NCBI RefSeq assembly: GCF_056712565.1
Contig: NZ_CM160072.1
Reading direction: 5' to 3' (one strand)
DNA length: 64,000 nt
The first letter of the stretch is position 1. Each line of letters opens with the position of its first letter. Below are positions 32,349 to 60,592 of the stretch, one piece after another. The notes below the pieces were generated by a model. The model did not search any database, was not told the DNA's origin, and worked only from the letters and a program-made list of their open reading frames with translations. The position numbers and the translations under genes were made by a program.

Positions 32349-33572
32349 ATGGCTAAAAACAAAGGTATCTGTCGGAATAAAAAATGCAGTAATCCTGTTT
32401 CAGAATTTGATGAGGCAAATGCCTTAAGGTTATGCGATGATCATTATAAGCTATGGAAGCGAAATAAAGAGAATCGTCGGGTCAGGAATATTTGTCGTAT
32501 AATTAGTAGATATGACAAAAGTCTGGACTGGGAGATATTTTATAGAGTAAGAGATGCTGCAAAAAATAAAACGGGAAAGAGAATTATTGAGGACGCAAAA
32601 ATATTACACCAATGGCGTGCTTCAAAGCAAGTAAGAAAAAGTTTTCACAAGGGTGTGCTTCGGTCACGGGAATGGCTTAATACACAGGAGTTACTGAGCA
32701 GAAAACATATATCTGTTACAGGTGAACTATTTAAATTTTACATAAAAGATATTATCAGATTATATTGCTATAAGTTTCTCTACAGCAGAGAATATCTTAA
32801 TGAAAACGCATACAAAAAACGATATCAGAGAGATATTCACCCCAGAAAAGTTAATGTTCCGATACTGCAACTTGAAGTTGCATGGATAAATAATAATTGC
32901 CGCTCAAGTGATTCAAGCACTGATATTATTATCCTTCCGAGGATGATAAGAAGAATGGTTGTATTTAATTATACGAAGATAAATAAACAATTAGAGAAAG
33001 TGTTGGGGGGGATAGCACGAAAACAAACCTCAGAAAGGAATAAAGGCGGTCTCTATACCAGAATAAAAAAAGAAAGTGACTTTCTTTCTATGGATAGATT
33101 TATGGTGGAAATAGAAAATATCATAAGACCTGAAAGGTTTCCTACATCAATTTATCCAGTCTTTTCACATTCATTTATTGAACGAGAGCTTCCGCTACTG
33201 AATCTTGCCCGATCACAGTATAAAAGAGCAATAAGTAAAAGAGTGGCGAATTCAATTTTTTATACTTTGCAAAAAACTAACGTGGCATTATGGCTATATC
33301 TTGAAATGTTTGCTCTGGTGGCATTCATTAAACTGTATACAGGAAAAGGTTTTGAATTCATAAAGAACATGTGTGTATTTATCGATTATGAGAAAGGGAT
33401 AATAAAATCCACACATGAAGAACTGCTGGGTGAAATTAAACGTAACATTCAAGTGAATTTGAAGGTGAATCCTGATAATTTTCCAGAGTTAATAGATATA
33501 TACAATTCATGCTTTAGTGAAAATATATTGTCATATGATATTCAGGATGGTAATTTTAAATGGCGCTCATGA
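32349..33572 (+). CDS. Hypothetical 407-aa basic protein with an N-terminal Cys4-type (zinc-ribbon-like) motif; AT-rich foreign gene, family not recognised
   Basis: Uninterrupted 1224-nt ORF in visibly AT-rich DNA, divergent from the GTPase gene; N-terminus CRNKKCSNPVSEF...LCDDHYKLW; Lys/Arg-rich. Confidence 0.6.
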   Translation: MAKNKGICRNKKCSNPVSEFDEANALRLCDDHYKLWKRNKENRRVRNICRIISRYDKSLDWEIFYRVRDAAKNKTGKRIIEDAKILHQWRASKQVRKSFHKGVLRSREWLNTQELLSRKHISVTGELFKFYIKDIIRLYCYKFLYSREYLNENAYKKRYQRDIHPRKVNVPILQLEVAWINNNCRSSDSSTDIIILPRMIRRMVVFNYTKINKQLEKVLGGIARKQTSERNKGGLYTRIKKESDFLSMDRFMVEIENIIRPERFPTSIYPVFSHSFIERELPLLNLARSQYKRAISKRVANSIFYTLQKTNVALWLYLEMFALVAFIKLYTGKGFEFIKNMCVFIDYEKGIIKSTHEELLGEIKRNIQVNLKVNPDNFPELIDIYNSCFSENILSYDIQDGNFKWRS

Positions 33573-38892: not shown

Positions 38893-39493
38893 ATGTCAAT
38901 GGAGATTTCAACAGTGGTGCGGCACACAAAATTTGCAGCGGAAGAAACCCGCAAACAAATCCTGGATGTGGCAGAGTTCTGCTTTTGTGAGACGGGCTTT
39001 TCGAAGACGACACTGGAGATGATTGCGGCGCGCGCAGGTTGTACTCGGGGGGCCATATACTGGTATTTCAACGAAAAAAAAGATCTTCTGCGACAAGTCA
39101 TCGAGCGGGTACCACTATCATTATTTGATGAGCTTACAGCCATCAAAAATGGGAGAGTTTTTGAACCGGTTAAAGCGATGTATCGTTGCTTATCACGTAG
39201 CCTGATTAAATTACAATATAATGTACACTTACGGAATGTAATTTATATTGTGTTTTTTTTGTGAAGAATGTCCGGATGATATAAGAATAAATTTCTTACA
39301 AAAAATGGTGGATGTCAATAATTTTGTGAAATTACTATGTTATATTTTCGAAAAAGGTAAGTTATATAGAGAAATATGTTTGGAAATTCGTAGTGAGACT
39401 CTGGCGTTCCTGCTTTTTTCTTTGTTTACGGGGGGGGGCGAAGTTGCATTCTGCAACCTGATAATAAATCCCTTTTCAGAGAGGGTTGCATAG
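38893..39493 (+). pseudogene. TetR-family regulator (AcrR/EnvR-like), apparently frameshifted
   Basis: N-terminal TetR HTH (TTLEMIAARAGCTRGAIYWYFNEKKDLL) in the 38893-39264 ORF; remainder continues in another frame (39248-39493); T8 run at 39253-39260. Confidence 0.55.
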
Positions 39494-39535: not shown

Positions 39536-39881
39536 ATGAACGCTACTATAAAAAACAGCTCTGATATCAATGAGTTTGCTAAATGGATTGATGAAAATCT
39601 TGAGGTAGAACTCTCAATAAATATTGAGGCAAAAAAAGCTGGATATTCAAAATGGTATTTACAGAGATTGTTTAAACATATCATTGGTATTTCTATTGGT
39701 AGGTATATTAATAAATGCAGCAGAAGAACTACGTTCTACTACTGAATCGGTCACGACTATCACTTTTAAATATCAGTTTGATTTTCAGCAGACATTTACA
39801 AGGGCATTTACTCGCCGCTTTGGTATAGCTCCTATTGCATACCGAAAACTCGCTAAGGAAGAAGTGAGATGGAATAGTTAG
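39536..39881 (+). pseudogene. MarA/SoxS-like small AraC-family regulator, split across two frames
   Basis: INEFAKWIDENLEVELSINIEAKKAGYSKWYLQRLFKHIIG in one frame, FDFQQTFTRAFTRRFGIAPIAYRK in the next; together they resemble MarA. Confidence 0.5.
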
Positions 39882-55094: not shown

Positions 55095-56291
55095 TTATGC
55101 CGTGCGGGCAATCTCCGCTGCATCTATAGCAATCATTTTTTCTTCATTGGTTGGGATGACCGCAATCTTCGTGGTGTCGGTTTTAGAAATCAGTCCGCTA
55201 CGTCCGCCGAACAGCTGCTGGTTACGTTCTTTATCCAGTTCCAATCCCAGCGCCTGAAGGCGTTGCACGGTAAGTTCTCGAATTAACGCCGAGTTTTCGC
55301 CAATTCCACCGGTGAAAATCAGCGCATCGAAGCGTTTAAGCGAGGTCACGTGGCCGCCGATATGTCGTGCGAGACGATGTACTAACACGTCGATGGCTAA
55401 CGCTGCCCGTTCGTGGCCCTCATCACGCGCCTGCTGAAGGGTGCGGCAATCGCTGGATAAGCCGGAAATCCCCATTAGGCCGGACTGGTTATTGAGCATT
55501 TTGTACAGCGTGTCGAACGTTTGACCTGTGCGTTTCGCCAGATATGCGACGACACCAAAATCAAGATCCCCGCAGCGCGTGCCCATTACCAGCCCTTCCA
55601 GCGGGGTCATACCCATTGAGGTGTCAATGCTCGTGCCGTTTTGCACCGCACATAGCGATGAACCGTTGCCCAAGTGGGCAATCACGATGCCATGATCCGC
55701 CGGGTCGAGATCTAGTGATGCAAGCGCCTCGGCGGCAATATAGCGGTGAGATGTTCCGTGAAAGCCGTAACGTCGCACCATATAATCTTGCTGGAACTCC
55801 AGCGGGATCGCATAGGTGTAAGCAGCCGGAGACAAGGTCTGGTGGAACGCAGTATCGAACACCGCAATATGCGGCAACGCGGGCAACAGAGCCCGAGCCG
55901 CTTCAATACCAATCAGGTTGGCAGGGTTATGCAAAGGGGCCAGCACCGACAGCGCGCGGACTTTTTCGATCACATCATCGGTAACCAGTACTGATCTTTT
56001 GAAGTCGCTGCCGCCATGAGCCACGCGGTGCCCAACGGCGTTGATGGCTTCCAACAGTTGCTGTTCGTCGAGCTTCGCGAAGAGCACTTTGAGCGCATGC
56101 TGATGGCTGGCGTCATCCAGCGCGACAGTGGATTTATGGCCGTCTCGGTCTTTAAACGTTATGACAGCATGATCAATACCCAGTCGTTCCGCTAGGCCCG
56201 ACAGCAACGGCTGATCTGCATCCTGAGGAATGACGGAGAATTTCATTGATGAGGAACCACAATTAATCACTAATACACAAGCTAAAGACAT
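55095..56291 (-). CDS. Acetate/propionate kinase (AckA/PduW/TdcD family)
   Basis: Start at internal MSLACVLVINCGSSSMKF (398 aa); ASKHA motifs FHGTSHRY and FTGGIGENS. Confidence 0.85.
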   Translation of the reverse strand: MSLACVLVINCGSSSMKFSVIPQDADQPLLSGLAERLGIDHAVITFKDRDGHKSTVALDDASHQHALKVLFAKLDEQQLLEAINAVGHRVAHGGSDFKRSVLVTDDVIEKVRALSVLAPLHNPANLIGIEAARALLPALPHIAVFDTAFHQTLSPAAYTYAIPLEFQQDYMVRRYGFHGTSHRYIAAEALASLDLDPADHGIVIAHLGNGSSLCAVQNGTSIDTSMGMTPLEGLVMGTRCGDLDFGVVAYLAKRTGQTFDTLYKMLNNQSGLMGISGLSSDCRTLQQARDEGHERAALAIDVLVHRLARHIGGHVTSLKRFDALIFTGGIGENSALIRELTVQRLQALGLELDKERNQQLFGGRSGLISKTDTTKIAVIPTNEEKMIAIDAAEIARTA

Positions 56292-56319
56292 GATGCCCCC
56301 TGAAATGGACTGCAAAAAA

Positions 56320-56817
56320 TTAACGGGTTGTTGTGAGGGGATAACGCAGAACGCTAAACTGCGCCATCGCCTGGCGGGCGATGAGCATATCTTCCTCAAC
56401 ACTGCCGCCGCTGATGCCGATGCCGCCTAGTAAGCGCCTGCCCGACCAGCAGGGAAAACCACCGCCGAAGCAGCAGATATCTTTTTCTTTCTCAAGGCCG
56501 TACAAATCACCACCCGGCTGTACCAGCGTTGCCAGTTCGTGAGTTGGCATTTTGAGAGCTACCGCGGTCCAGGCCTTTTGTGGTGCCAAGGTATGGCTGA
56601 CCAGCAGGGCGTTATCCATGCTGAAGAAAAAACGCTGCTGACCGCAGGCATCCACTAGGCTAAAAACGATCGATACATTGCTGGACTGTGCTATTTCCCG
56701 GACCAACTTTGCCAGCAGTTCACTGTCCTCCAGGCTCAGCGACATCCGGAGTTCCGGTAACTGCGTGGCAATAGCCTCGTTAATCCAGTTGTCGAGTGAA
56801 GCCTCATTCGCAGACAT
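56320..56817 (-). CDS. GlcG/PduO-C-terminal-like (DUF336, heme-binding-type) protein
   Basis: 165-aa ORF with C-terminal GGIGISGGSVEEDMLIARQAM motif. Confidence 0.65.
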   Translation of the reverse strand: MSANEASLDNWINEAIATQLPELRMSLSLEDSELLAKLVREIAQSSNVSIVFSLVDACGQQRFFFSMDNALLVSHTLAPQKAWTAVALKMPTHELATLVQPGGDLYGLEKEKDICCFGGGFPCWSGRRLLGGIGISGGSVEEDMLIARQAMAQFSVLRYPLTTTR

Positions 56818-56844
56818 AAGTATTCCTCAGCGTACGCGCCGCTA

Positions 56845-57114
56845 TTAACCGTTAAGTTCGAGCGAGTCGACGATACCCACCACGGCAGCGTCAATCACCG
56901 AGTGATCTTTGTTGTTGCTCATACGCGCCGAACTGCCGGTGGTGATGATCACAATCTCTCCATTGCCCGCGCCGACAGTATCAACTGCCACCTGGGCATG
57001 AACAGTCGGCTGATAGTTTTCATCGAGCCGCGCCACTATCAGCAGTTTTGAGCCATTCAGCGAGGCGTGTTTGGTGGTGGAAACCAATGCGCCAGTAACT
57101 TTAGCGAGGTACAT
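56845..57114 (-). CDS. BMC-P vertex (pentamer) protein, EutN/PduN/CcmL family
   Basis: 89-aa ORF MYLAKVTGALVSTTKHASLNGSKLLIV...GAGNGEIVII... Confidence 0.85.
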   Translation of the reverse strand: MYLAKVTGALVSTTKHASLNGSKLLIVARLDENYQPTVHAQVAVDTVGAGNGEIVIITTGSSARMSNNKDHSVIDAAVVGIVDSLELNG

Positions 57115-57125
57115 ATTTCCTCCGG

Positions 57126-57830
57126 TTAACCATGGATAACAGTGAGATTACGCCGCTGGATTTCATCTCTGGCAGCAGGGGTAATCAGCGTGTCGCTCTC
57201 AATGCGCAGCACTGTGCCAATGGTCAGTAGGCGGATATCGCTCTGGGTGATTAAACGTTTTTTACCGGCTACTGTCAGGGTGGATTGGCTTCCTTGCACC
57301 GACTTGACATGGGCTGCACGTTTACCGAAAAGCGTAATGCCATAGCTCTCTAGGACCTGAGCGTAACCTTCCAGACAAGACAGCAGTGGCATCGGTAATT
57401 CGCTATCGACGCATTGTTGATGCAGCGTGGCGATAATCTGTTTACGGTGCTGTAACGTCTGAAATACAGTTTCACAGGCCAGATTATCGCGAATGCCCAG
57501 CGCAATTTTGCTCATGCTGTTGACAGAGAGCGCAGGCAGATAGAGCACCTCATAGTGAGGCGGCGATCTGTCAAATCCAGCACGAGAACCACGCTGAATT
57601 AGCGCATCCATGCAGACAGATTTCAGCGCCGACTGGCTGGCGCTGTGAGAAAAATTTACCCACAACTGATAACCCGCCAGCTCAAGCGCCTCAAGGCAGT
57701 TCAGCGTTTCCGGCAGCGAGGAGATATCCTCACCAGTCACCACTACGCAGACATTTTTCTGCGCGACGGATTGTGCCAACACTTCAGCGATGACCCGGTC
57801 CAGCAGTTGCGATAAGGTTTGATTGTCCAT
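57126..57830 (-). CDS. Hypothetical protein of the microcompartment operon (possible flavoprotein-like fold; unassigned)
   Basis: ORF track 241 aa; start at internal MDNQTLSQLL preferred (follows the EutJ-like stop); VCVVVTGEDISSL motif; family uncertain. Confidence 0.45.
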   Translation of the reverse strand: MDNQTLSQLLDRVIAEVLAQSVAQKNVCVVVTGEDISSLPETLNCLEALELAGYQLWVNFSHSASQSALKSVCMDALIQRGSRAGFDRSPPHYEVLYLPALSVNSMSKIALGIRDNLACETVFQTLQHRKQIIATLHQQCVDSELPMPLLSCLEGYAQVLESYGITLFGKRAAHVKSVQGSQSTLTVAGKKRLITQSDIRLLTIGTVLRIESDTLITPAARDEIQRRNLTVIHG

Positions 57831-57834
57831 TGAT

Positions 57835-58593
57835 TTACCCCTGGTCCGCATTCATGGCGATGCCTAATGGTGTGACCAATAGTGGCTCTGCCGAAGGAAT
57901 CACATTTTTACCGGTTTGTTTACTGAACACGTTGGCAAACTGGCTGAAGCTGCTCGCGCCACCTACCAAATAAATATTTTTTACCTGCTGGGTAGCGAAC
58001 CATCCCGACACCAAGCTGGCCATTTTCTGGGCCACCGGTAGCACCAGGGTAAAGACCTGCGCTTCCTGCCCGTTTTTTTTCATTTCTTCCGCCTCGGCAT
58101 AAGGCAAGCCCAGCGCGCCAGCGATCACCAACTTCATATGGCTTCCACCGGTGGGCTCATCGGCACTGAACGTCACTTTACCGCTTTTCAAAATGCTCAT
58201 GCCGGTGGTGCCTCCTCCGACATCCACCACCGCCCCGTTTTTAATATTCAGCGCGCTGGCAGCGGCTACCGGTTCATCTAGTACTTGGGTCACGATAAAA
58301 CCCGCCAACTCCACTACGTTGACGATCACTTTTGTGTTGCCTTCAGAGATCCCCGGTGGGACTGCGATCGCCGCGCGCTCCAGCGTGCAGCCCTGTTTCT
58401 GTTCAAGAATTTGTTTGAGACGTGCTACTACCCGGCTGGCGGTCAGGTAATCCACCACCACGCCGTCTTTCACCACATTGGAGGGATACATTACCCCTGC
58501 CACCGGCTGGTTATCTTCATCCAGCACCACGATTGCGATATTGGCGGTACCGAGATCCCCCCCACCTTCAACGCGCCGGAGTAGGGCCGACAT
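57835..58593 (-). CDS. EutJ-like actin/Hsp70-fold chaperone; N-terminus apparently displaced by a -1 frameshift in a C7/G7 homopolymer
   Basis: 252-aa ORF with DLGTANIAIVV and VDVGGGTTG motifs; an upstream ATG at 58653-58655 reads MANSPENCRFHELAALIDSGECRPYSGALKVG in another frame and would join in-frame if the run at 58557-58563 were 8 nt. Confidence 0.7.
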   Translation of the reverse strand: MSALLRRVEGGGDLGTANIAIVVLDEDNQPVAGVMYPSNVVKDGVVVDYLTASRVVARLKQILEQKQGCTLERAAIAVPPGISEGNTKVIVNVVELAGFIVTQVLDEPVAAASALNIKNGAVVDVGGGTTGMSILKSGKVTFSADEPTGGSHMKLVIAGALGLPYAEAEEMKKNGQEAQVFTLVLPVAQKMASLVSGWFATQQVKNIYLVGGASSFSQFANVFSKQTGKNVIPSAEPLLVTPLGIAMNADQG

Positions 58594-58647
58594 TCGCCGC
58601 TGTCAATCAGCGCGGCCAATTCGTGAAATCGGCAGTTTTCGGGGCTG

Positions 58648-59334
58648 TTAGCCATGGCGCGCAGCCTGTTTTATGCCGCGAACGGTATCGCCATTACGCA
58701 GACCGACGCCGTTAGCTTCTTCCATATCAATATGCAGTTCCAGCACTGCATCCGCCGTGACGCGTACCACTACATGGCTGAGCACACCACCGCGCGGACC
58801 GTTTGTTTGCACATCGATTTCCATTCCGTCATGCAGGCCGTGCAGTTCGGCTTCTTCGGGCGAGATATGGATATGGCGCCAGGCGACAATCATGCCGTTG
58901 TGTTTCACCACCCGCCCTTTCGGACCGATGATTTCAATGCCCGGCGAATCCAGCAGATCCCCCGACATGCGCACCGGAGCTTTAGTGCCCAGCGCAAAGC
59001 CGTCGGCCACAGAGATTTCCACCTGCGTGGCATTACGCAGTGGCCCTAACACGCGCACTTTGTTGAGCTCGCCTTTTGGCCCGCGCAGCGTCACCATCTC
59101 TTCGGCGGCATACTGACCGGGCTGTTTCAACGCTTTAGAACGGGTTAGCGTAGAGCCGTAGCCAAACAGAATGTCCATATCTTCACGGCACAGATGAACA
59201 TGGCGGTTGGACACGCCCACCGGAATATTCAGCGCGACAGGCGCGGCAGCAGGCGCTGCCGTTTTTTTACTGGTGGCAAGTTCCTGCAAAATTTGTTGGG
59301 TAATCCACTCGGCTTGTTGTTCGGTGTAATTCAT
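58648..59334 (-). CDS. PduL-type phosphotransacylase (phosphate acyl-transferase)
   Basis: 228-aa ORF with PduL signatures NRHVHL and WRHIHISPEEA. Confidence 0.85.
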   Translation of the reverse strand: MNYTEQQAEWITQQILQELATSKKTAAPAAAPVALNIPVGVSNRHVHLCREDMDILFGYGSTLTRSKALKQPGQYAAEEMVTLRGPKGELNKVRVLGPLRNATQVEISVADGFALGTKAPVRMSGDLLDSPGIEIIGPKGRVVKHNGMIVAWRHIHISPEEAELHGLHDGMEIDVQTNGPRGGVLSHVVVRVTADAVLELHIDMEEANGVGLRNGDTVRGIKQAARHG

Positions 59335-59473
59335 AATGGGTACGACCTGATTATTGGGTTATCTTATGGGTAATGGGCGTCTAACGATCAGGATAGGGAG
59401 TAACGACGCCCGGTTTTTGTTTATCAGCAGGACTTTTTTGACTGCTTCACGGAGGCTGAACAAAGTTATCCAG

Positions 59474-60592
59474 CTAGCCGGTAATCAGGTCGATCAACCC
59501 TTCGACATCATGCGTCGTCACCTGCCGCGGGTTCGACGCGGTACAACCGTCGGCCAGCGTCGAATTCACCAGTGCGCTGCGCAACTCGATGATTTTTGCA
59601 CGGTCGATGCCCAGTTCGCTGAGAGTGACGGGGATGCAGAAATGGCGATTGATCTGGCGGATCTCCTGAGTCATCAGCGCGATGGCCTGCTCCGGTACCG
59701 CATGGTCAATGCCTATGATTTGCGCGCAACGGTGATAGCGATCGCGGGTTTCAGTGCTGGCCCGTTTGCTGTTGAAGTCGATGACAATCGGCAGCAGCAT
59801 GGCGTTAATTTTGCCATGAGGAATATGCAGCATCCCGCCGATGGCGTGTGCCATGCCGTGTACCAACCCCAGCCCGGCGGAGTTAAATGCCATGCCTGCC
59901 ATACAGGAGGCATTGTGCATGTGGGTGCGCGCCGCAATGTCTTTTTCGTCGTTAAACACCTGCGGCAGATAGCGCCAGGTCAACGCGATGGCTTTTTCCG
60001 CCAGCGCATCGCTAAAGTCATTTGAGCCAGTAGAGACAAAGGCTTCAATGGCATGGGTCAGCACGTCCATGCCGGTATCTACCGCGACATGACGCGGCGC
60101 GGTTAACACTAGGTTAGGATCGAGAATGGCGATTTCCGGCACCAGTTGCCCGGAGATCAACGGATATTTGCGGCCATTTTGCGGATCAGAGATGATCGCG
60201 TAGGACGTCACTTCAGAGCCGGATCCGCTGGTTGTGGGAATAGCAATGAGATCGATTTGATGATCTCCAAAATACTCTTCCAATGTGACTTTAATTCCTT
60301 TCGCAGCGTCCAGCGACGAGCCGCCGCCGAGGGCGATAATAACGTCGGGCTTAAAGGCTTTAAAACGCGCCGCGCCGGAAGTCAGAATATCAATATCTGG
60401 ATCCGGAGTAACCTCACCGAAAATGCATACCGATGCCTCAGGCATATGGCTTATTAAATAACGAGTTTTACCTGATGACATCATAAAATCATCGGTGACA
60501 ATACCGACTCGTTTATTATTAAATTGGCATAGAGAGGTTATTGCCTCTTCACCAAAATAAATTTTGGGGCACGAAAAATAATAGCGGGCCAT
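59474..60592 (-). CDS. Iron-containing alcohol dehydrogenase (PduQ/EutG-like); first gene of the operon
   Basis: 372-aa ORF with Fe-ADH motifs GGGSSLDAAK and His-rich metal site; 5' intergenic region upstream. Confidence 0.9.
   Translation of the reverse strand: MARYYFSCPKIYFGEEAITSLCQFNNKRVGIVTDDFMMSSGKTRYLISHMPEASVCIFGEVTPDPDIDILTSGAARFKAFKPDVIIALGGGSSLDAAKGIKVTLEEYFGDHQIDLIAIPTTSGSGSEVTSYAIISDPQNGRKYPLISGQLVPEIAILDPNLVLTAPRHVAVDTGMDVLTHAIEAFVSTGSNDFSDALAEKAIALTWRYLPQVFNDEKDIAARTHMHNASCMAGMAFNSAGLGLVHGMAHAIGGMLHIPHGKINAMLLPIVIDFNSKRASTETRDRYHRCAQIIGIDHAVPEQAIALMTQEIRQINRHFCIPVTLSELGIDRAKIIELRSALVNSTLADGCTASNPRQVTTHDVEGLIDLITG

Follow-up and report, generated by a model that had tools for sequence, protein, structure and literature searches.

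A one-nucleotide deletion separates the ancestral start of grpC from its EutJ-type body in the Escherichia coli grp microcompartment locus

Introduction

EutJ is a putative chaperone. In Salmonella, deletion of eutJ did not remarkably affect growth or the assembly of the Eut microcompartment, and tagged EutJ was found in the cytoplasm, according to a 2025 study (PMC12487888). An older report states the contrary, namely that EutJ is needed for the use of ethanolamine as a carbon source (PMC5821096). The family is described by the models TIGR02529 and NF011660 and by a solved structure (PDB 3h1q). A EutJ-like gene, grpC, is part of the grp locus of E. coli; the grp locus of strain CFT073 is reported to be functional for anaerobic 1,2-propanediol degradation, as cited in PMC11724981.

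A gene whose start and body lie in different frames on either side of a run of identical bases can be compared with several described systems. The programmed -1 frameshift sites of dnaX, IS911 and IS3 in E. coli carry an X_XXY_YYZ heptamer in the correct phase. For the heptamer GGGGGGG, Sharma et al. reported -1 frameshifting in E. coli of 0.030% without a stimulator, 0.088% with the IS911 stimulators and 1.07% with the IS3 pseudoknot, and the same heptamer is under-represented in E. coli coding sequences (PMC4066793, Table S3); the background of their study was about 0.04-0.07% (PMC4066793). Slippage of RNA polymerase is efficient at runs of 9 A or T, the RNA-DNA hybrid being 9-10 bp long (PMC5009743). 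In the thymidine kinase of herpes simplex virus, mutants with a single-base indel in a G7 run are rescued by low-level frameshifting (PMC5009743). The most ordinary case is that of fixed frameshift pseudogenes, or 5'-truncated alleles re-annotated from an internal start: an indel disrupts the frame relative to all orthologues, it recurs in independent assemblies, and the annotation pipeline takes the longest remaining ORF.

The grpC gene analysed here shares features with several of them. Like dnaX, IS911 and IS3 it presents a heptamer in the correct phase, but this heptamer is among the poorest, has neither a Shine-Dalgarno-like nor a structural stimulator, is unconserved in orthologues and was born by a deletion in a normal string of codons. 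Like the viral mutants it has a single-base indel in or creating a run of about seven G, and a net -1 shift at the run could bring its upstream frame back to that of the body; unlike them it resides in a bacterial host, in which the heptamer works at background level. Like ordinary pseudogenes it shows a disrupting indel relative to all orthologues, found in independent assemblies, and is annotated from the longest remaining ORF. It differs from them in being so far free of secondary lesions and in having a body under apparent constraint on a long branch, which may pre-date the lesion.

Results

The DNA analysed (the window, 64,000 nucleotides) contains the E. coli grp locus, which encodes a glycyl-radical propanediol microcompartment, on its minus strand. 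Features are collected in Table 1. We searched complete E. coli genomes by megablast with positions 57800-58900 and obtained matches in 538 of 5,426. At least 99% identity was found in 536 of the 538, with grpB, grpC and grpD annotated, and a divergent, intact allele annotated as eutJ is present in two complete genomes, L73 and PK5074. Genes for PduL, a flavoprotein, EutN, an HbpS-like protein and an acetate/propionate kinase flank grpC, and BMC shell genes lie further downstream, which is the setting of a microcompartment operon. Pfam supports the assignment of the actin/Hsp70-fold EutJ-like protein itself, as well as those of the flavoprotein, EutN and the HbpS-like protein. The 8-nt overlap of the PduL gene with the next gene is also seen in intact orthologous loci. 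Read from its sequence, the ancestral grpC start is translationally coupled to grpB.

Table 1. Positions of the parts of grpC and of neighbouring features in the window
Feature	Position	Strand	Basis and remarks
Ancestral grpC start ATG, ATGGCTAA overlap with the grpB stop	58653..58655	-	Sequence; orthologues start at the homologous ATG, MADSPENRRL...
Orphaned 5' segment, codons 1-30 and most of codon 31 of ancestral GrpC	58564..58655	-	N-terminal helix and start of strand beta1
G7 run	58563-58557	-	GTG GGG GTG GAT became GTGGGGGGGAT; DNA alignment, orthologue codons, census
54-aa ORF from the ancestral ATG	58491..58655	-	ORF list; 33 upstream-frame residues plus 21 out-of-frame residues, stop TAA 58493-58491
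grpC per RefSeq, 252 aa, WP_001332070.1	57835..58593	-	ATCC 11775 annotation
TAATG, stop of the 54-aa ORF overlapping a body-frame ATG (Met56, full-length numbering)	58489..58493	-	Read from sequence
grpB, PduL-type phosphotransacylase	58648..59334	-	PF06130, 239 bits; RefSeq name grpB
grpB stop TAA	58650-58648	-	Overlaps the ancestral grpC start
Fe-alcohol dehydrogenase gene	59474-60592		Pfam

Translation from the ancestral ATG reads MANSPENCRFHELAALIDSGECRPYSGALKVGG and then falls out of register with the body of the gene. The 32 codons that begin at this ATG match the conserved N-terminus of EutJ, and in the orphaned segment 29 of 32 residues are identical to those of the intact E. coli allele P0001. 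A preliminary description of the window had placed the start, its overlap with the PduL stop and the break of the frame at these same positions, and all its coordinates are correct on the sequence. The grpC of RefSeq begins at another ATG, at 58593, with an in-frame TGA (58605-58603) four codons upstream. Its first ten codons (MSALLRRVEG) are the ancestral N-terminus read out of frame, and the ORF regains the ancestral frame within the G run.

In order to define the ancestral state, we repaired the frame by adding one base at the run and searched a protein collection with the result. Orthologues of 272-274 aa were retrieved with 100% query coverage, including the second E. coli allele P0001 (93% identity) and Atlantibacter hermannii (85%). 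Every full-length homologue aligned has the N-terminal segment MA.S.E..RL.ELAALI.SGEC...G.LKVGVDLGT, and starts at MSALLRRVEGGG are confined, in the protein alignment, to the E. coli clusters of the present allele. In the DNA alignment, AAG GTG GGG GTG GAT CTC of the intact E. coli allele corresponds to AAGGTGGGGG-GGATCTC in the window. The lesion is thus the loss of the T from the codon of Val33, and this loss fused G5 and G2 into G7. By this alignment the run is the product of the mutation, with no contraction of an older tract. An ancestral G8 that lost one G was also considered; it is ruled out by orthologues that read GGGGG-T-GG.

The codons GTG GGN GTN GAY are found at the site in Atlantibacter subterranea, Klebsiella indica, two Raoultella species, Rouxiella aceris and Tissierella, and likewise in the intact E. 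coli alleles. Of 102 full-length homologues, at least 97% have Val33, and a pattern scan of genome contigs covering 13 loci revealed no second species with the G7 allele. The comparison of run lengths in related genomes that the preliminary description had proposed thus gives GTG GGN GTN in orthologues and G7 in the E. coli haplotype only. Orthologues combining G7 with a short conserved N-terminus, which it had named as the observation that would speak against a frameshift, do not occur outside this one haplotype. Its suggestion that one extra G would give a EutJ-like protein of about 273 aa holds as arithmetic, since the repaired protein has 273 residues and matches the EutJ models, but not as history, because the lost base is a T.

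Homopolymers are error-prone, and run lengths were counted across the 536 complete genomes that carry the allele, by means of a 77-nt query with the run at its centre and of variants with one G more or fewer. G7 was found, identical over the full 77 nt, in 518 genomes, including CFT073 and ATCC 11775. G8, which would restore the frame, was found in none (0/536). Fourteen genomes have G6, which is out of frame for both start codons, one (strain MLI104K2) has G5, and three differ elsewhere within the 77 nt. A pattern scan of metagenome contigs, in which 0-4 bases were allowed between the flanks, gave G7 in 14 of 14. A sequence shared by 518 complete genomes from many laboratories and by 14 metagenome assemblies refutes an error of sequencing or assembly in the window, to which we attach practically no probability. 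The indel breaks the frame relative to orthologues, is reproduced in independent assemblies and is real: grpC has lost one nucleotide, and this loss is fixed in nearly all E. coli with the locus.

The presence of G6 in 14 assemblies and of G5 in one could also indicate a phase-variable tract, in which changes of run length in the DNA would switch grpC on and off. The distribution makes this very improbable. A contingency locus is recognised by segregating ON and OFF tract lengths, and none were seen in the 536 genomes: G8 is absent, G6 is itself out of frame and the metagenome contigs are G7 throughout. The sole in-frame variant, the G5 of MLI104K2, comes with a truncated product and an A8 run of the same gene that is two bases shorter, a contraction typical of homopolymer miscalls, which points to an assembly error. 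Several of the G6 assemblies are paired within the same sequencing projects, which points to under-calling of the homopolymer; one of the G6 assemblies (ExPEC XM) is flagged as frameshifted by PGAP.

The 252-aa ORF was compared with the EutJ family models. It scores 383.8 bits against TIGR02529 (cut-off 152.1), residues 11-248 being aligned to model positions 1-239, and 347.7 bits against the EutJ equivalog model NF011660 (cut-off 182). RefSeq calls this ORF an intact GrpC and the whole TIGR02529 core is covered, an observation that goes against a loss of function. The repaired 273-aa protein scores 383 bits against TIGR02529 and matches the EutJ model end to end. Its alignment to NF011660 spans positions 12-275, compared with 31-275 for the 252-aa ORF, so that model positions 12-30, at the N-terminus, are matched only once the frame is repaired. 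An AlphaFold2 model of the repaired protein has a mean pLDDT of 87, with a helix at residues 5-19 and strand beta1 at residues 29-35. The indel thus falls in the middle of beta1, directly before the DLGT phosphate-binding loop. The structure 3h1q can be aligned from residue 13 onwards.

Altogether, grpC resembles the EutJ family in the full-length match of its body to the family models, in its place within a microcompartment operon, immediately downstream of a PduL-type phosphotransacylase gene, and in the N-terminus and length of its intact orthologues. It departs from the family in the G7 haplotype, in which the body is not in frame with the 32 conserved N-terminal codons, the nearly invariant Val33 is missing and the annotated product starts from a non-homologous ATG. 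The start codon and the N-terminal segment (NF011660 positions about 10-30), which in the family share one frame with the GVDLGT phosphate-1 motif, are here offset from it by 1 nt at 58557-58563. The deletion parts the ancestral start and the N-terminal helix from the ATPase body.

We then considered how the body could be translated from ATG 58593. The RefSeq model would be right in functional terms if a 252-aa GrpC worked without the N-terminal helix, the deletion having only re-modelled the N-terminus. The ORF does span the full EutJ core of TIGR02529 (384 bits), its body has no further lesions and retains all invariant residues, dN/dS is below 1 on the branch to the window allele, and the allele is nearly universal among E. 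coli grp loci. Yet the calculated pairing of this start with the anti-Shine-Dalgarno sequence is only -1.1 kcal/mol, the weakest among the grp starts tested (-4.0 to -9.5 for grpA, grpB, grpE, grpF, grpG and the grpD ATG at 57830), and amounts to essentially no Shine-Dalgarno pairing, and the ATG is located inside the ORF read from the coupled ancestral start. In the product, VEGGG would stand where beta1 normally has LKVGV. The N-terminal helix, which the model predicts with high confidence and which orthologues, NF011660 and PDB 3h1q share, would be lost. The ORF is also broken in the 14 G6 assemblies, although these may be assembly errors, and haplotype diversity is so low that the absence of decay weighs little. 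On balance we think it unlikely that the 252-aa protein is a working GrpC. Further downstream, the TAATG is a possible point of re-initiation, which could yield a 218-aa product devoid of the DLGT phosphate-binding loop; as the intact E. coli allele has the same TAATG, its presence is coincidental.

To look for traces of selection or decay, substitutions between the window and the intact E. coli allele were assigned to branches with two outgroups. On the branch to the window allele, grpC as a whole accumulated 10 synonymous and 13 non-synonymous changes (dN/dS 0.43). The N-terminal 32 codons account for 1 and 3 of these, respectively (dN/dS about 1 by our own calculation), and the body for 9 and 10 (about 0.37, likewise our own calculation). 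Six neighbouring genes have values of 0.21-0.42 on the same branch. The dN/dS of grpC is thus not distinctive compared with its neighbours, and the branch may be largely older than the deletion. None of the 68 columns invariant among 102 homologues is altered in the repaired protein, in which V33G is the sole violation of a conserved column. Genomes with the G7 haplotype form a nearly clonal set, and about three quarters of those sampled have 100% identity over the whole of grpC. Among the G7 haplotypes of the 14 metagenome contigs, grpC has 2 non-synonymous and 2 synonymous sites, which are few, and the neighbouring genes have roughly 6 non-synonymous and 14 synonymous sites. The tests of selection are without power, and both a recently broken gene and a gene still in use fit these data. 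The undecayed body, with its 68 invariant columns and a dN/dS of about 0.4, speaks against a loss of function; the absence of decay is compatible both with a recent lesion and with continued use of the protein.

Codon 31 has position 58563 as its last base, and the upstream frame consequently reads the run as G_GGG_GGG. A slippery heptamer of the X_XXY_YYZ type is thus present in phase with the upstream frame. A -1 shift on it would produce a 273-aa protein with V33G, reading ...LKVGGDLGT, with the junction peptide ...ALKVGGDLGTANIAIVVLDEDNQPVAGVMYPSNVVK. The published values for GGGGGGG (PMC4066793), which were not obtained with this sequence, place the heptamer below an efficient site. By the criteria of the same study, no Shine-Dalgarno-like element was found 6-17 nt upstream of the run, since the sole similar string, AGGTG, abuts it. 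In the 131 nt that cover the run and the sequence downstream of it, no structural stimulator was detected (fold z = -1.9; the short hairpins start beyond the 5-9 nt spacing), and an Rfam search around the run gave no match. All orthologues read through the site as GTG GGN GTN, so that the shift site is not conserved. With 7 G, the run is also shorter than those at which transcriptional slippage has been found efficient.

These results bear on the idea of compensatory recoding, in which ribosomal -1 slippage, or addition of a G by RNA polymerase, would supply useful full-length GrpC V33G and make the run a leaky or attenuating site. The exact X_XXY_YYZ phase and the ...LKVGGDLGT product of the shift argue for it, as do the 32 upstream codons, which are still open and encode 29 of 32 residues as in the intact allele. 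The low-level frameshifting that rescues G-run indels in the herpes simplex thymidine kinase is a precedent (PMC5009743), and by analogy makes rescue in grpC possible. But the heptamer shifts at 0.03% without a stimulator and at about 1% even with the strong IS3 pseudoknot (PMC4066793), the search for stimulators, whether an upstream Shine-Dalgarno-like element, a downstream fold or an Rfam family, was negative, and the run falls short of the 9 A/T runs of efficient polymerase slippage (PMC5009743). Since the heptamer is conserved in no orthologue, it is not an evolved signal. The derived changes of the N-terminal segment, three non-synonymous to one synonymous, also count against recoding. 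We consider recoding improbable. A still bolder version, also improbable and held with even less confidence, is that G7 is kept as a leaky frameshift: rare slippage or stuttering would provide sufficient GrpC (V33G) while most ribosomes coupled from grpB stop early. Were this so, the deletion would be a built-in attenuator that sets the stoichiometry of the chaperone in the Grp microcompartment operon.

Discussion

We think it probable, though well short of certain, that the G7 form of grpC is a recently fixed, tolerated allele of an accessory gene, with its function lost or strongly reduced. Ribosomes coming from grpB would make a 54-aa dead-end peptide. The body would then be reached by two routes only, (a) poor initiation de novo at ATG 58593, a start that lacks a Shine-Dalgarno sequence and would give 252 aa with an altered beta1 and no N-terminal helix, and (b) trace spontaneous -1 slippage on G_GGG_GGG. 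The allele would be tolerated because EutJ-type proteins are accessory, and the lesion would be recent enough for the rest of the gene to show no decay. The preliminary description had left the choice between a sequencing indel, a pseudogenising mutation and a slippage-prone tract. The first is refuted by the census, in which 518 of the 536 complete genomes and all 14 metagenome contigs have G7. The second is the best supported, every orthologue having the long N-terminus and an uninterrupted ...KVGVDLGT. As for the third, the geometry is as described, with G_GGG_GGG in phase, but the heptamer works at background level without a stimulator (PMC4066793) and G8 is absent from all 536 genomes.

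The deletion is an event of a known kind and calls for no new mechanism; G7 grpC is a new instance of it. It has consequences for annotation, as the 'GrpC chaperone' of the E. coli genomes examined (WP_001332070.1, ATCC 11775) starts at a non-ancestral ATG. Expression, deletion or modelling of GrpC from strains of the CFT073 type deals with a natural allele that is frameshifted. The grp genes of CFT073 have reportedly been deleted individually by Lundin et al. in 2020, and a literature search for grpC returned nothing relevant. An intact form of 274 aa exists in Atlantibacter and in rare E. coli strains. Should the G7 allele be null, uropathogenic E. coli would run a functional Grp microcompartment without its EutJ-type protein, and this would add to the evidence that the family, conserved but enigmatic, is dispensable in laboratory conditions.

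Finally, the abundance of G7 in the window is unremarkable, with 5 hits of the heptamer for 5.1 expected. The significance of this particular run is its position within a conserved ORF.

Branch-specific dN/dS and variation of the grp locus

Branch dN/dS was compared across grpA-grpG (window 55095-60592) between the E. coli haplotype of the window, which carries the G7 form of the EutJ-like gene grpC, and its sister branch with the intact grpC allele. The ratio was higher on the window-haplotype branch in five of the seven genes: grpA (0.34 versus 0.14), grpB (0.27 versus 0.04), grpC (0.43 versus 0.15), grpD (0.42 versus 0.21) and grpG (0.21 versus 0.12). It was lower in grpE (0.34 versus 0.51) and grpF (0.24 versus 0.27). 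Together with the near-clonality of the window haplotype over 536 genomes, these ratios suggest a mildly relaxed grp locus that has spread recently. Two metagenomic loci, L036 and L024, show changes in grpB and grpC, respectively (see table), which may be more lesions of the grp locus or errors of low-coverage assembly.

The intact grpC allele is found in E. coli GCA_012198685.1 (locus L004), where a DDE_3 transposase gene adjoins grpA on the upstream side. This would fit a different grp haplotype gained independently by horizontal acquisition, with Atlantibacter subterranea as its nearest relative (93% identity in GrpC).

Features of the grp locus and of other G runs in the window
Feature	Position	Strand	Remarks
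G7 run	33005-33011	plus	Within intact 407-aa ORF 32349-33572
G9 run	39430-39438	plus	Longest G/C homopolymer of the window
grpD alternative starts	57830-57851	minus	RefSeq annotation versus orthologues and anti-SD pairing
A8 run and adjoining 3-nt deletion	58071-58080 (A8, 58080-58073)	minus	Comparison with close orthologues
24-nt deletion and premature stop, grpC	equivalent to 58328-58351		L024, another gut-metagenome haplotype, contig at ~1x coverage
TAATG	58489-58493	minus	Stop of 54-aa frameshifted ORF overlapping ATG in grpC body frame
11-nt deletion, grpB	equivalent to 58939-58949		L036, metagenome contig OGRO01000996.1, one gut-metagenome haplotype
DDE_3 transposase gene	L004 2777-3808		E. 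coli GCA_012198685.1, directly upstream of grpA

Sequence context of grpC and grpD

The TAATG in grpC, whose ATG encodes Met56 in full-length numbering, has the layout of the classic termination-reinitiation type. This arrangement is probably coincidental, because the intact E. coli allele has the identical string. Further along the gene, the deletion adjoining the A8 run is in frame and distinguishes the window allele (KKN-GQEA) from all close orthologues (KK[KD]PAQEA); it is a second indel beside a homopolymer within grpC.

RefSeq places the start of grpD at ATG 57851 (241 aa), overlapping grpC, whereas the start codon of its orthologues corresponds to ATG 57830 (MDNQ/MDSQ...). Anti-SD pairing is also much better at 57830 (-6.7 versus -2.4 kcal/mol), and the annotated start is probably seven codons too far upstream.

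Other G runs in the window

The sole ORF overlapping the G9 run, TTG-initiated and of 81 aa, is probably spurious. About 100 nt downstream of the run a 69-aa ORF starts at 39536, and the run may represent a variable promoter or leader tract. The 407-aa ORF (plus strand) that contains the G7 run is rich in lysine and asparagine, and the surrounding region looks foreign, of island-type composition.
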